A stretch of DNA of 64,000 nt. Origin: a virus. Its lineage: Duplodnaviria > Caudoviricetes. The stretch is from the IMG/VR virus record IMGVR_UViG_3300031992_000011. The stretch is one strand, 5' to 3'. Both the position numbers and the translations under genes were made by a program. This document shows positions 25,623-30,298 of this stretch, one piece after another. Each line of letters opens with the position of its first letter. Positions within the stretch are counted from its first letter, which is position 1. The notes beneath the pieces were generated by a model that had not been told where the DNA came from, did no database searches, and saw only the letters and a program-made list of their open reading frames with translations.

Positions 25623-25705
25623 TATTGGCGAAAAAAATCCACACAAAAGAAATTTTTTTGTTGAATTTTCAAAAGTTACTGCTATTTATATTTCGTAAAA
25701 AAAAA

Positions 25706-25926
25706 TTCTGTAAACGATGCGAATATATTGCACATCCACAAACGGTAAAAACGAATGGTCTGCATATGACAGTAGACCACTCGAAAACCCATACTGTTTG
25801 TCGTGCATCGCATCACGGTAGTTTTATCAACCGTAGAATACTGATCAGAATTCCAATATATGAGGTCCGTGATGCATGTGGGAACACAAGCATTGCGGAC
25901 TCCCCCTTTTCTAAAGAGGTGCAGAA
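25706..25926 (+). ncRNA. candidate structured ncRNA, unclassified
   Basis: Terminal helix TTCTGTA/TGCAGAA and internal stems CGATGC/GCATCG, TGGTCT/AGACCA, ACGGT/ACCGT, GTCCGTGATGC/GCATTGCGGAC; TATTTATA upstream; no credible ORF. Confidence 0.45.
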
Positions 25927-25932
25927 AATTTG

Positions 25933-25987
25933 TTAACATTCTTTAACATATAAAATTTGCAGAAGTCAACTTTTTGTTGTACCTTTG
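25933..25987 (+). promoter_or_regulatory. promoter of the tRNA cluster with a tandem TTAACA box
   Basis: TTAACA at 25933 and 25943, TTTG at 25956, TACCTTTG at 25980. Confidence 0.75.
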
Positions 25988-26038: not shown

Positions 26039-26109
26039 GCGTCCATAGCACAGAGGCAGTGCACCGGCTTCCCAAGCCGGGGACGCCAGTTCGATTCTGG
26101 TTGGACGCT
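26039..26109 (+). tRNA. tRNA-Gly(CCC)
   Basis: Cloverleaf; anticodon arm CCGGC-TTCCCAA-GCCGG. Confidence 0.92.
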
Positions 26110-26116
26110 CAAGTAC

Positions 26117-26327
26117 TGCGAGTATAGACCACTTAGTAGTGACCGGTGTAAGCGCTTGGGTAGCTCGAGGCAATGTCCGAGCGTGCAGTCGTGGGGCAAC
26201 GTGCACCCTCAGACCGGTGAAACGTGTTGGTGCTTGTGAAGGCCCATACGAGGTGGCGCAACAGATACGGTTCCCGCGTGGGGAATATCCAAGCCCGTGA
26301 CAGCCGCCGCTCGTCAATTTACTCGCA
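26117..26327 (+). ncRNA. candidate 211-nt multibranch ncRNA, unclassified
   Basis: TGCGAGTA/TACTCGCA closing helix; GCTTGGGTA/TATCCAAGC; four internal hairpins; fills the spacer between two tRNAs. Confidence 0.65.
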
Positions 26328-26330
26328 TAT

Positions 26331-26405
26331 AGGGAAGTGGCTCAGTCCGGTTAGAGCGCTTGCTTTGGGAGCAAGAGGCCGCAGGTTCGAATCCTGTTTT
26401 CCCTA
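26331..26405 (+). tRNA. tRNA-Pro(TGG)
   Basis: Cloverleaf; CTTGC-TTTGGGA-GCAAG. Confidence 0.93.
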
Positions 26406-26419
26406 CAAAAAAAAATAAC

Positions 26420-26493
26420 ACTCCAGTGGCGCAATTGGTCAGCGTGTCTGTCTTATACACAGTAGGTTGTAGGTTCAAGTCCTACCTGGAGTA
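26420..26493 (+). tRNA. tRNA-Ile(TAT)
   Basis: Acceptor ACTCCAG/CTGGAGT; anticodon loop CTTATAC. Confidence 0.85.
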
Positions 26494-26517
26494 CATTTTT
26501 GAAAAACAATCAGCATT

Positions 26518-26736
26518 ATGCCGAAACTTAATCTAAATGAAGTACTGAATGATGACGATGTCATCAAGGCGTTGAACCCTAAAGAATGGGAGTTCAGGTG
26601 TGGCAGTTGTGACAACTTCTGTGACATCTTCGGGAGATATTCCGAGTTCAAAACCATTGAAAGATGCCCGTTCGAGGGGAAGGTGACGTGGGACACTGAT
26701 TGGAGAAAGATTGGCTGTAAGTGCTATTGGAACTAA
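26518..26736 (+). CDS. small Cys-rich protein within the tRNA cluster
   Basis: 72 aa; CGSCDNFC, CPF, C-terminal GCKCYW. Confidence 0.55.
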   Translation: MPKLNLNEVLNDDDVIKALNPKEWEFRCGSCDNFCDIFGRYSEFKTIERCPFEGKVTWDTDWRKIGCKCYWN

Positions 26737-26739
26737 AAT

Positions 26740-26813
26740 GGTCCTGTAACTCAGTTGGTCAGAGTGCCTGACTCATAATCAGGGAGTCGTAGGTTCAAGC
26801 CCTACCGGGACCA
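26740..26813 (+). tRNA. tRNA with a CAT anticodon (Ile2-like or elongator Met)
   Basis: CCTGA-CTCATAA-TCAGG; the GACTCATAATC context resembles tRNA-Ile2. Confidence 0.85.
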
Positions 26814-26822
26814 CAATGCAAT

Positions 26823-26896
26823 TGCGGGGTGGAGCAGATGGTCAGCTCGTTTGGCTCATAACCAAAAGGTCGCAGGTCCGAGTCCTGCCCCCGCAA
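26823..26896 (+). tRNA. tRNA-Met(CAT), initiator-like body
   Basis: GCGGGGTGGAGCAG...GCTCG as in fMet tRNAs; anticodon stem TTTGG/CCAAA. Confidence 0.85.
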
Positions 26897-26960
26897 CAAC
26901 ACAGTCTGCCGATAAGAGATGAACACCTATTTATGTCTATAGCAGATATAGCATTGAAAT

Positions 26961-27689
26961 ATGAATAGGATAAGGCAAATCATCAACGAGGCAGTCCGAG
27001 AGACCTTGTTGTTTGAAGCGATCAAGTCAAGTTGGTTGAAAAGGTTCTTCGCCGAGCATGGAGGTGTGGACAGCACTATGCACAACGACTACTTGGGCGA
27101 CGCACAGGATGAGGATATCGAGGACGTGAAGGTTTTTCCTTCAAAGAAGGAAGCGTTTGAAATGGCGTGGAAACTGAGACGTGAGCACATAACCGGTTTT
27201 CGTAAAGTATATGTCGCCAAGGACGGCACGGCAGTTCTTGTCGTGTACAAGGATTCTGTAAAATCAAACCCGACATGGGGCGGAGAAGCGTCCGCAAAGA
27301 CAGCCGACAGGTATTGGAGAAACGGTGAAAGGTTCACTTCGTACAATCCTGAAACCGGTCAGAGAGTACCCGGATACCGTGACGACAGGGGCACCTACAC
27401 ATACAGTGACGGAAAGTCAAGCGAAGGTGCCGCCAGATTCGGCATAAGGAATTCGGACGATTACCGTAGACATGTGGCGTTCGTCAGAGATCAGAGGGCG
27501 AAGGCAAAACAGAACGGAAAAGAGGATGATTTCAACCGTTGGCGTGATGCAGAAGCCAAGAGAGTCAAAGACTACGCTGAAGAAAAGAAGAAGGAACGTG
27601 ATTGGCAGAGGGAATATTTCGGGCTCAGTGACCGTGAGCGAGAACGCAGACTGTCAAGACCTGCCCCATTGGACAAGCGTTTCAAATAA
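26961..27689 (+). CDS. basic hypothetical protein with an RQIINEAV leader
   Basis: 242 aa inside the tRNA cluster; TATTTAT at 26928. Confidence 0.7.
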   Translation: MNRIRQIINEAVRETLLFEAIKSSWLKRFFAEHGGVDSTMHNDYLGDAQDEDIEDVKVFPSKKEAFEMAWKLRREHITGFRKVYVAKDGTAVLVVYKDSVKSNPTWGGEASAKTADRYWRNGERFTSYNPETGQRVPGYRDDRGTYTYSDGKSSEGAARFGIRNSDDYRRHVAFVRDQRAKAKQNGKEDDFNRWRDAEAKRVKDYAEEKKKERDWQREYFGLSDRERERRLSRPAPLDKRFK

Positions 27690-27738
27690 CACGAATGCGT
27701 TAAACGGCCGCGCCGACATGTCAGTGCGGTCATTTTAT

Positions 27739-27810
27739 GCCCCCTTAGCACAGCGGTAGTGCAGTTCACTTGTAATGAACAGGTCGTTGGTTCGAATCCG
27801 ACAGGGGGCT
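27739..27810 (+). tRNA. tRNA-Thr(TGT)
   Basis: Cloverleaf; GTTCA-CTTGTAA-TGAAC. Confidence 0.93.
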
Positions 27811-27817
27811 CAACATA

Positions 27818-27896
27818 GCAAGGTAACAACAAGGCGCGACTCCCCCAACCGCGCCGGTAACCCGCACGTAACAGCCGATAGGGGCGGCGACCTTGC
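27818..27896 (+). ncRNA. candidate small pseudoknotted RNA
   Basis: GCAAGGT/ACCTTGC closing stem and a GGCGCG/CGCGCC hairpin whose CCCC loop is complementary to the GGGG at 27881. Confidence 0.45.
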
Positions 27897-27902
27897 CGAT
27901 AC

Positions 27903-27974
27903 GCGGATGTAGCACAACGGTTCGTGCACCAGCCTTCCAAGCTGGGGATGACGGTTCGATTCCGTTCATCCGCT
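27903..27974 (+). tRNA. tRNA-Gly(TCC)
   Basis: Cloverleaf; CCAGC-CTTCCAA-GCTGG. Confidence 0.93.
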
Positions 27975-27982
27975 CAAAAAAT

Positions 27983-28096
27983 GGGCTGAAATTTGTGGGC
28001 ATAAAGTTAAAACCTCAAGACGTTGAAAGCAGCAGTATAGGGACTGCTATTGGCGGTCAGATTAACCGTAGCCACATCTTGCAAGAGTTTCGGCCT
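27983..28096 (+). ncRNA. candidate structured ncRNA
   Basis: 12-bp closing helix GGGCTGAAATTT/GAGTTTCGGCCT (with G-U pairs) and internal hairpins AGCAGT/ACTGCT and CGGT/ACCG. Confidence 0.5.
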
Positions 28097-28103
28097 TTAA
28101 TAT

Positions 28104-28181
28104 AGCGGAGTGGAGCAGAAGCAGCTCGTCAGGTTCATACCCTGAAGGTCGTCTCAAACGGTGCAAGTCCTACCTCCGCCA
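28104..28181 (+). tRNA. atypical initiator-like tRNA-Met(CAT) with a T-stem insertion
   Basis: A1:C72 mismatch; TCAGG-TTCATAC-CCTGA; extra bases in the 5' T-stem strand; TGCAAGT T-loop. Confidence 0.65.
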
Positions 28182-28189
28182 CTAAAATA

Positions 28190-28313
28190 TGGGATTCTAC
28201 ACAGAGTATTCTTTTAAGTAGATGCATATGCTTACTAGGATATTGGGTGGTATTAGATTTTGAAACTGCAGATAATCAAAATCTATTAGGAGGTTCGAGC
28301 CATCTGTTTCCCA
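28190..28313 (+). ncRNA. candidate T-loop-containing ncRNA or remodelled tRNA
   Basis: TGGGA/TCCCA ends, ACAGA/TCTGT, 10-bp hairpin TAGATTTTGA/TCAAAATCTA, GGTTCGAGCC. Confidence 0.45.
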
Positions 28314-28327
28314 CAAAATTCAAAAAT

Positions 28328-28401
28328 GGTGCGTTAGTTCAGTTGGTTAGAATGCCTGCCTGTCACGCAGGAGGTCACGGGTCCGAGTCCCGTACGCACC
28401 G
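28328..28401 (+). tRNA. tRNA-Asp(GTC)
   Basis: Cloverleaf; CCTGC-CTGTCAC-GCAGG. Confidence 0.93.
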
Positions 28402-28455
28402 CTTCTTGATTGTTTGAATGAGTGGTTTGGGTCGTGTGAGCGCCCAGACCTTTTT

Positions 28456-28529
28456 GCTCCCTTAGCTCAGTTGGATAGAGCGTGAGGTTCCTAACCCCAA
28501 GGTCATGTGTTCGAGCCACATAGGGAGTA
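28456..28529 (+). tRNA. tRNA-Arg(CCT)
   Basis: Cloverleaf; anticodon loop TTCCTAA. Confidence 0.9.
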
Positions 28530-28533
28530 CTAT

Positions 28534-28619
28534 GGATGGGTGGCAGAGTTGGTCGATTGCACCGGTCTTGAAAACCGGCGGCCCGCAAGGGTCCGGGGGT
28601 TCGAATCCCTCCTCATCCG
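28534..28619 (+). tRNA. tRNA-Ser(TGA)
   Basis: CCGGT-CTTGAAA-ACCGG with a long variable arm. Confidence 0.93.
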
Positions 28620-28626
28620 CATAACA

Positions 28627-28710
28627 GCGACAGTGGCGGAACTGGTAGACGCGCCACCTTGAGGGGGTGGTGGGCACACGCCCGTGAAGGTTCGAGTCCT
28701 TTCTGTCGCA
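28627..28710 (+). tRNA. tRNA-Leu(GAG)
   Basis: CCACC-TTGAGGG-GGTGG with a long variable arm. Confidence 0.92.
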
Positions 28711-28754
28711 CAGGCCGGCCGCGAGACGCGCAACGGTCCGTGGCATGGGCATTT

Positions 28755-28828
28755 GCTGCCATCGTCTAATTGGTTAGGACGTCGCCCTTTCACGGCGGAG
28801 ATTACGGGTTCGAGTCCCGTTGGCAGTA
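28755..28828 (+). tRNA. tRNA-Glu(TTC)
   Basis: Cloverleaf; anticodon loop CTTTCAC. Confidence 0.93.
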
Positions 28829-28832
28829 CAAC

Positions 28833-28904
28833 GACTCCGTAACTCAGTGGTAGAGTATCGCACTTTTAATGCGAGAGTCGTGGGTTCAAGTCCCACCGGG
28901 GTCA
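28833..28904 (+). tRNA. tRNA-Lys(TTT)
   Basis: TCGCA-CTTTTAA-TGCGA. Confidence 0.93.
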
Positions 28905-28918
28905 CGAACGCGACAAGA

Positions 28919-28991
28919 GGGCCGCTAGCTCAGATGGTAGAGCGCTACATTCGCATTGTAGAGGTCACCGGTTCGAATCCGGTGCGGTCCA
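28919..28991 (+). tRNA. tRNA-Ala(CGC)
   Basis: CTACA-TTCGCAT-TGTAG; G3:U70 pair present. Confidence 0.92.
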
Positions 28992-28998
28992 CAGACAG

Positions 28999-29127
28999 AG
29001 CGTGTCGCGAACACGCACGCCATCGCACGAGAGGATTGGGGATGGTAACCCCGGATTGTGGAGGTCGTCTAACCAACGATAGAAGTGGCCGTCCGGTACA
29101 TAATCAACGGACAAACATCGTGACGCT
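28999..29127 (+). ncRNA. candidate structured ncRNA
   Basis: Closing helix AGCGT(GT)CGCGA/TCGTGACGCT; GCCATC/GATGGT and GTCCG/CGGAC stems. Confidence 0.4.
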
Positions 29128-29138
29128 TGGCATGTCAT

Positions 29139-29210
29139 GGGGTGATAGCTCAACGGTAGAGCAATTGGCTGTTAACCAATAGGCTGCAGGTTCGAATCCT
29201 GCTCACCCCG
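29139..29210 (+). tRNA. tRNA-Asn(GTT)
   Basis: ATTGG-CTGTTAA-CCAAT. Confidence 0.92.
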
Positions 29211-29284
29211 CAACTCAGAAGAACGGGCGAATCGCCCTGACAATGGGGATTGAACGGCACCGCCAAAAGTGGTGCCTTTTGCCG

Positions 29285-29368
29285 GGGAGCGTAACCGGTA
29301 ATTGGTAGCCGCACGGACTGTAAATCCGTTCCTTAATTGGACTGGTCGTTCGAGTCGACCCGCTCCCA
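29285..29368 (+). tRNA. tRNA-Tyr(GTA)
   Basis: ACGGA-CTGTAAA-TCCGT, variable arm, somewhat unusual D arm. Confidence 0.88.
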
Positions 29369-29379
29369 CAATGACTGTT

Positions 29380-29453
29380 CTTCCTGTAGCTCAACTGAAT
29401 AGAGCAATGCACTTCTAATGCATAGGTTCTGGGTTTGAGTCCCAGCGGGAAGA
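29380..29453 (+). tRNA. tRNA-Arg(TCT)
   Basis: ATGCA-CTTCTAA-TGCAT. Confidence 0.9.
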
Positions 29454-29462
29454 CTAATAACA

Positions 29463-29535
29463 AGGCGGTTAGCTCAGTTGGTAGAGTGGCGGTCTCCAAA
29501 ACCGCAGGTCGCACGTTCGAGCCGTGCACCGCCTG
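29463..29535 (+). tRNA. tRNA-Trp(CCA)
   Basis: GCGGT-CTCCAAA-ACCGC. Confidence 0.93.
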
Positions 29536-29543
29536 CAAAAAAA

Positions 29544-29633
29544 GGAAGCATACCCAAGTTGGTGAAGGGGGCGGCTTGCTAAGCCGCTAGGCCTCGGCGA
29601 CGGGGCGCGGAGGTTCGAGTCCTCCTGCTTCCG
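29544..29633 (+). tRNA. tRNA-Ser(GCT)
   Basis: GCGGC-TTGCTAA-GCCGC with a long variable arm. Confidence 0.93.
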
Positions 29634-29640
29634 CACAAAC

Positions 29641-29713
29641 AGGGTAGTAGCGCAGTTGGTAGCGCGCTACGTTCGGGACGTAGAGGTCGCAGGTTCGAAT
29701 CCTGTCTACCCTA
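29641..29713 (+). tRNA. tRNA-Pro(CGG)
   Basis: CTACG-TTCGGGA-CGTAG. Confidence 0.93.
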
Positions 29714-29721
29714 CTTGAATG

Positions 29722-29776
29722 TTAACAATTATTAACATGAAAAATTTGCAAGGTATATTTTTTTGTCGTACCTTTG
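29722..29776 (+). promoter_or_regulatory. promoter of the four-unit ncRNA array
   Basis: TTAACA at 29722 and 29732, TTTG at 29745, TACCTTTG at 29769; same geometry as the promoter at 25933-25987. Confidence 0.75.
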
Positions 29777-29782
29777 CACTTG

Positions 29783-29870
29783 AAAACAATGGTGAGTGAC
29801 AGGGTTACTTCGCATACAAACTGTTACAAGATTAAAAAGCAACGAACCCTTCGCATATCTTCCTTGTTTT
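29783..29870 (+). ncRNA. Y-RNA-like scaffold unit 1 (no tRNA cargo)
   Basis: AAAACAA/TTGTTTT, AGTGAC, AGGGTT/AACCCT, TTACTTCG. Confidence 0.55.
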
Positions 29871-29890
29871 TGTTCTTTGACATTCTTAAA

Positions 29891-30025
29891 ATGTGTGCAG
29901 TGACTGTGGCGGTTACTTCGTTGATTAGCTCATTTGGTAGAGCATAAGTTTATGGTACTTAGGGTAGATGGTTCGATTCCATCATCACAAAAGATTGTTT
30001 GCCGCCGCAAAATTTTCTCACACAT
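29891..30025 (+). ncRNA. Y-RNA-like scaffold unit 2 with an embedded tRNA mimic (loop TTATGGT)
   Basis: ATGTGTG(C)AG/CTCACACAT, TGAC, TGTGGCGG/CCGCCGCA, TTACTTCG; D, anticodon and T arms at 29922-29987 with only a 4-bp acceptor. Confidence 0.7.
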
Positions 30026-30033
30026 AACTCATA

Positions 30034-30166
30034 TTCCGCATAGTGACGGGCGGTGTTACTTCGAATTATTTAGCGCAGTGGTTAGCGCATCACACTTTTA
30101 ATGCGAGAGTCGCCGGTTCGATTCCGGCAATGATTCTTTAAAAGCACCCCCATTTTTCTTGCGGAA
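30034..30166 (+). ncRNA. Y-RNA-like scaffold unit 3 with an embedded tRNA-Lys(TTT) mimic
   Basis: TTCCGCA(T)AG/CTTGCGGAA, TGAC, GGTG/CACC, TTACTTCG; cloverleaf at 30063-30136. Confidence 0.7.
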
Positions 30167-30173
30167 AAGCACA

Positions 30174-30298
30174 ACCGGTTGTGACGTATCTCGGTTACTT
30201 CGATACGTTGGTTCGAGTCCAACTTTGTCCGCCATACAATTGGACGAATAGTCAAGTGGTTAAGACAGAATTCTTTACCGAGGCGAGTTTCCACCGGT
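30174..30298 (+). ncRNA. Y-RNA-like scaffold unit 4 with a circularly permuted tRNA module (YrlA-like)
   Basis: ACCGGT/ACCGGT, GTGAC, CTCGGT/ACCGAG, TTACTTCG; T arm 30207-30223, looped acceptor TTTGTCC-GCCA...GGACGAA, D arm 30251-30266. Confidence 0.75.

Follow-up and report, generated by a model that had tools for sequence, protein, structure and literature searches.

Genomic context of the 211-nt RNA

The DNA analyzed here (the window) is a 64,000-nt stretch of the Caudoviricetes record IMGVR_UViG_3300031992_000011 and contains 21 tRNA genes at positions 26039 to 30137. On the plus strand, the genes for tRNA-Gly(CCC) (26039 to 26110) and tRNA-Pro(UGG) (26331 to 26406) flank a noncoding element of the same orientation at 26117 to 26327, exactly where the original prediction had placed a 211-nt RNA. 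Upstream of the tRNA operon, positions 25956 to 25987 (plus strand; TTTG, 20 nt, TAnnTTTG) fit what we take to be the Bacteroidota promoter consensus, suggesting a promoter of that type. The cluster is followed by genes for an FtsH-like protein, DnaJ, IF3, and a sigma factor and, further on, by RNA repair or tRNA maturation genes (40898 to 61160) that encode an RlaP-type nucleotidyltransferase, an HD plus kinase (Pnkp-like) protein, an RNA-ligase-like protein, and Thg1. The FtsH-like protein is encoded on a 330-kb contig and its relatives on contigs of up to ~370 kb, and we infer that the window belongs to a Bacteroidota jumbo phage. Sheep-gut metatranscriptomes are among the sequencing runs that contain its DNA.

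The tRNA region holds other candidate RNAs. Two tRNA-like genes (28104 to 28181 and 29922 to 29987) match Rfam without being called by ARAGORN, and a further tRNA-like unit (30200 to 30290) looks, by eye, reversed, with a T-arm first and then an acceptor-like stem and D-arm; similar units, YrlA-like or permuted tRNAs, occur in L252 and L258. The leader GTTACTTC is found four times (29804, 29912, 30055, and 30194), each time directly 5' of a tRNA or tRNA-like gene, and L252, L257, and L258 also carry it ahead of tRNA-like units. Between tRNA-Thr and tRNA-Gly lies a second conserved RNA of ~75 nt (window, 27818 to 27895; L243, 6450 to 6515; L245, 2258 to 2322) with a covarying closing helix and the invariant core words CGUAAC, GCCGAU, and GCGGCGACC; it is probably pseudoknotted and has no match in an Rfam search, and its conservation and size would be in keeping with a small ribozyme or an aptamer. 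The tRNA spacers of relatives share a structured RNA of ~230 nt (L243, 939 to 1257; L245, 481 to 785) that likewise lacks an Rfam match and is unrelated to the 211-nt RNA. GC-rich, ORF-less stretches with hairpins at 28994 to 29138 and 25683 to 25930 have no homologue in the related loci compared.

Homologues and phyletic distribution

Alignment of the FtsH-like protein yielded ten related phage records. In one of these, G001, two colinear matches join into a full-length homologue of the element (E = 1.5e-11), and a motif common to the window and G001 led to a further member, L289. Matching with L289 placed the RNA in 15 of 15 Lak megaphage records; in Lak-A1, it exactly fills the spacer between tRNA-Leu and tRNA-Ile. 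A search with model R1, built from 6 sequences, recovered six unseen members (G009, G005, G008, L260, L433, and L434; E values of 1e-9 to 1e-57). Together with the window, the 11 homologues make up a set of 12 sequences of 196 to 294 nt that are 44 to 98% identical and occur as one copy per genome in Bacteroidota-type jumbo phages of 330 to 370 kb and in Lak megaphages. Within the family of records sharing the FtsH-like protein, the RNA is present in 4 of 10, and in only 1 of the 3 that are near complete, indicating that it is either dispensable or too diverged in the others.

Elsewhere, a strictly filtered R1 search of 151 Prevotella-family genomes, run with no positive control, gave no match, and an R1 search of four environmental huge phages was likewise negative. 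One pattern scan of GTDB gave 0 matches and another at least 120 that were nonhomologous, scans with guessed motifs gave chance matches only, and the family is under-sampled; a blastn search of phages with the window copy was negative. Rfam models, run at both gathering and E-value (E ≤ 10) thresholds, did not match the element or its homologues.

Every member lies in or near a tRNA cluster, five of them no more than 5 nt from the next tRNA. The identities of the flanking tRNAs vary and no neighboring protein gene is shared, which marks the RNA as an independent module. Release by tRNA processing, as originally proposed, is plausible at the window locus but is not obligatory across the family, since one homologue has its nearest tRNA 1.3 kb away and a T-run behind it. 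These data identify the element as a real, new RNA family shared by giant phages of the gut, among them the Lak megaphages, and bear out the prediction of a genuine structured noncoding RNA in a phage tRNA cluster that falls outside every Rfam family. We found no published description of it in a literature search that covered few subscription papers and did not extend to the candidates of Fremin et al. 2023 (PMC10690425), which may include the motif.

Comparative structure

Taken alone, the window sequence is unremarkable: its minimum free energy (MFE) is -79.7 kcal/mol (z = -1.06) and 27 of 200 shuffled sequences fold equally well, so its stability is not above chance. With this fold and no Rfam match, the case rests on the homologues. 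Across these, 93.4% of the cells in the proposed helices pair, versus 33 to 46% in slid controls, two-sided changes occur in 33 of 42 pairs, and the covariation value is 0.67, versus 0.09 to 0.16 with the partners slid; 27 of the 42 pairs are "strong" under a strict test, versus 1.2% of other column pairs, although such pair counts are inflated, most of the helices being already part of the model that guided alignments A5 and A6. Two helices, P3 and P7, were absent from that model and emerged from the data, and an alignment made with MAFFT only already showed P1, P4, P8, and P9.

The helices, as located by column-pair searches and pair counts and defined by covariation, form one four-way junction (P2, P3, P7, and P9) and one three-way junction (P4, P5, and P6). 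P1 (26117 to 26124 with 26320 to 26327) closes the molecule. Inside it, positions 26128 to 26132, which are 100% paired, supply the 5' strands of P2 (26128 and 26129 with 26313 and 26314) and P3 (26130 to 26132 with 26224 to 26226); both show compensatory changes in L289 and Lak. Between P3 and P4, a conserved AGUA strand (26135 to 26138) faces GAA (26219 to 26221) in what we take to be a loop-E/bulged-G motif. P4 (26142 to 26147 with 26213 to 26218), with covariation in all five counted pairs, closes the three-way junction, which includes a conserved GUAA (26148 to 26151), the hairpin P5 (26152 to 26184; stem 26152 to 26159 with 26177 to 26184, two-sided changes in 7 of 8 pairs), and the variable hairpin P6.

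On the other side of the four-way junction, P7 (26228 to 26230 with 26244 to 26246) carries the P8 hairpin (26232 to 26243; 26232 to 26235 with 26240 to 26243), which probably has a GNRA loop. P9 (26253 to 26258 with 26305 to 26310) leads through a probable C-loop into a variable distal domain, the whole spanning 26253 to 26310. In the window, CAA (26259 to 26261) lies opposite C26304 and is closed by C26262-G26303; across the family, CAA faces C or UC beside P9, consistent with the asymmetric features of C-loops (PMC9516175). No C-loop is present in L260, the most divergent member. The long forms (Lak, L289, G009, and L434) are extended by a hairpin of 35 to 40 nt inserted in P7, and their distal domain is larger. 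The GUAA of the three-way junction and a UA-G linker before P9 are conserved without matching a recognized module.

This architecture departs from the one first drawn. All eight of the complementary pairs claimed there exist in the sequence, and several also appear in the MFE fold, yet comparison with 10 nonself homologues retains only the outer helix (96% paired cells) and part of the next one: GAC/GTC pairs in 73% of cells, with its inner two pairs alone reaching 100%. The remaining inner helices range from 38 to 68%, versus 82 to 100% for the comparative helices, and are not supported: CGGTG/CGCCG (60%), GCTTGGGTA/TATCCAAGC (44%), and the arms GCTCG/CGAGC (38%), GTGCA/TGCAC (44%), CCTC/GAGG (68%), and TTCCC/GGGAA (40%). 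Structure conserved in related phages, the absence of which had been named beforehand as evidence against the RNA, is therefore present, though largely as a different fold.

The comparative fold of the window sequence (-68.8 kcal/mol) lies 11 kcal/mol above the MFE, implying that it needs tertiary or protein stabilization. A weak hint of a stable transcript comes from Logan contigs, which cannot show RNA ends, strand, or level: in one sheep-gut metatranscriptome (X1), a contig covering 26006 to 26332 has a depth of 23.9, versus 2.8 to 8.7 for the operon's other unique contigs. In a run from a related strain (X4; library type not recorded), the same stretch is unenriched (5.9 versus 4 to 15), and in X2, from the same sample as X1, no contig covers the element.

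A palindromic loop and a predicted dimer

The loop of P5 contains the palindrome CUCGAG (26164 to 26169, plus strand), which we propose as an intermolecular kissing site. Palindromes of 6 to 10 nt occur in this loop in 11 of the 12 sequences, the exception being L260, and their centers coincide to within about one alignment column. Five hexamers are represented, namely, CUCGAG (window), GCUAGC, ACUAGU, CACGUG, and UCCGGA, and three members extend the symmetry to 8 to 10 nt. When the loops were shuffled, the probability was 4.8e-4 for palindromes of five independent types at any place in the loop and 5e-5 for 8 of 9 lineages, falling to 1.5e-5 once position was taken into account. These values are somewhat optimistic, since the feature had been noticed before it was tested. 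Both members found after the idea had arisen carried a palindrome, one of them a new hexamer, and a control loop was palindromic only in the window and its strain.

A palindrome without a spacer cannot pair with itself within one chain. Switching between palindromes is also what supports the intermolecular bridges seen by cryo-EM in OLE (L9.3) and GOLLD (L21a) (Kretsch et al., PMC12286853), and the covarying palindrome in a hairpin loop that characterizes self-assembling noncoding RNAs is present in 11 of the 12 members. The conserved self-complementarity thus makes it probable that two copies of the RNA pair through the P5 loop as a kissing dimer.

Proposed role and alternative explanations

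The best explanation, to which we assign a probability of roughly 0.6, is a stable trans-acting RNA, usually cut out of a tRNA transcript, that homodimerizes and acts as a scaffold or decoy. Under this proposal, Bacteroidota jumbo phages and megaphages carry a free-standing gene whose structured RNA would be cotranscribed with the tRNA operon, starting at a promoter of the host type. Maturation of the tRNAs on either side, by enzymes of the host or the phage, would set the RNA free, and its paired ends would protect it. The compact two-junction core, presumably stiffened by recurrent modules, would present the P5-loop palindromes so that two copies join into a symmetric kissing dimer or a higher oligomer. 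During infection, the dimer may then bind a host RNA-binding or RNA-cutting protein, beside the phage's own tRNA supply and RNA repair genes. That last step, the use of the dimer as a scaffold or decoy toward such a protein, is the weakest, and we advance it tentatively. Somewhat more speculative still is the idea that giant Bacteroidota phages have their own class of compact (~210 nt) self-assembling RNA and that its dimer does an undescribed biochemical job, either catalysis or the sequestration of a host anti-phage ribonuclease; if true, this would constitute a new RNA-based arm of megaphage counterdefense.

The palindrome could instead be a protein-binding site or a DNA-level signal in an RNA that functions as a monomer. 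L260 manages without it, and six-base palindromes are typical of DNA recognition sites; however, a protein site should keep its letters, whereas here five hexamers occur with only symmetry and loop position constant, and we regard this explanation as unlikely. Still less probable is a new ribozyme, self-cleaving or tRNA processing, that helps to cut the phage tRNA transcript. Its appeal lies in the position within tRNA clusters, often ≤5 nt before the next tRNA, in several invariant or nearly invariant unpaired residues, and in an AGUC beside P9 that resembles the cleavage site of the hairpin ribozyme. Much of the conserved unpaired sequence is, however, accounted for by structural modules, neither the window nor Lak-A has the U of AGUC, and equivalents of the hairpin ribozyme's G8 (loop A, opposite N-GUC) and A38 (loop B) were not seen, the opposite strand reading CAAC, with no G. 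Moreover, the closed ends leave no conserved scissile junction, and some members lie far from tRNAs.

An oligomerizing RNA of the virion or packaging motor, like the phi29 pRNA, would suit the phage-only distribution, the intermolecular loop signature, and the similar size, but is improbable for an RNA that is patchy among close relatives, common to two phage groups of different size, and located among tRNAs behind a host-type promoter; pRNA, besides, pairs two different complementary loops and not one palindrome. We give very little credence to a degenerate or permuted RNase P RNA. Look-alike words exist (AAAGUC near the 3' end and GCAAG...AAUAG in the long variants), and the original prediction had noted another, which proves to begin at the end of the palindrome and reach into the 3' strand of P5 and, being unconserved in the homologues, is a coincidence. 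Four carrier genomes gave nothing with RF00010 at E ≤ 10, whereas 11 of 14 controls matched, and a Prevotella RNase P RNA was not recognized by R1. All 12 members differ from the CR-I and CR-V words by 3 to 5 letters, and their fold is nested and lacks the P4 pseudoknot. Circular permutations of raiA or RNase P RNA, suggested by short sequence words, were rejected after covariation assigned those positions other partners. A cis-acting switch or stabilizer for the downstream tRNAs has an equally slim chance: the RNA stands at the head of the operon at the window locus, but its position and neighbors vary elsewhere and a conserved terminator or expression platform was not seen.

Comparison with known RNAs

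Few structured noncoding RNA classes of this complexity are known from bacteria and phages, and natural RNA-only oligomers have been described only recently. The family adds one with an architecture of its own, present in every Lak megaphage record checked (from human and baboon gut) and in rumen jumbo phages. Its size permits cheap synthesis, probing, and cryo-EM, and swap experiments could draw directly on the short and long forms and the five palindrome alleles that nature provides.

No tRNA or YrlA match, as a tRNA-like domain with T-arm and D-arm might give, was found over the element. Bacterial RNase P RNA (RF00010) shares with it the tRNA context and a few short words, but has the P4 pseudoknot, CR-I, and CR-V, all three of which the family lacks, and its model gives no match. 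The raiA motif (RF03072) is similar in being ~160 to 250 nt long with a bulged terminal helix, four-way and three-way junctions, optional peripheral stems, and an unknown function (PMC12968392); the phage family differs in its palindromic loop and in being phage borne, not chromosomal. With RF03072, four carrier genomes were negative at E ≤ 10, as no control genome passed the cutoff either, and covarying counterparts of the raiA pseudoknots PK1 and PK2 were not seen among the 12 sequences, a set of limited power. The retroviral dimer initiation loop is comparable in mechanism only: there, too, purines flank a hexamer palindrome in a hairpin loop, and the symmetry persists while the letters vary, but that loop is a genome signal of unrelated origin, whereas the phage RNA is a stand-alone noncoding RNA.

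OLE is a chromosomal RNA of Gram-positive bacteria, and ARRPOF is plasmid borne. Both form RNA-only homodimers via kissing loops, and ARRPOF (255 nt) is similar in size to the phage RNA (PMC12990946), which nevertheless has a different fold and no Rfam match. The Rfam models of GOLLD, ROOL, OLE, and ARRPOF gave no match at E ≤ 10 to the window, L280, L289, Lak-A, or Lak-B. The original likening to GOLLD and ROOL was the right kind of analogy, as these are also phage borne, lie near tRNA islands, and have no known function, and L21a of GOLLD forms symmetric kissing loops with palindrome covariation (PMC12286853), as we propose for the P5 loop. They differ in scale, with ~550 to 830 nt and 7 to 18 bridges, versus 200 to 290 nt and one evident bridge for the RNA of the Bacteroidota phages. 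This is a new family of a known kind, which most likely works like the self-assembling noncoding RNAs of phage tRNA islands and provides a tractable model for what GOLLD- and ROOL-type RNAs do there.
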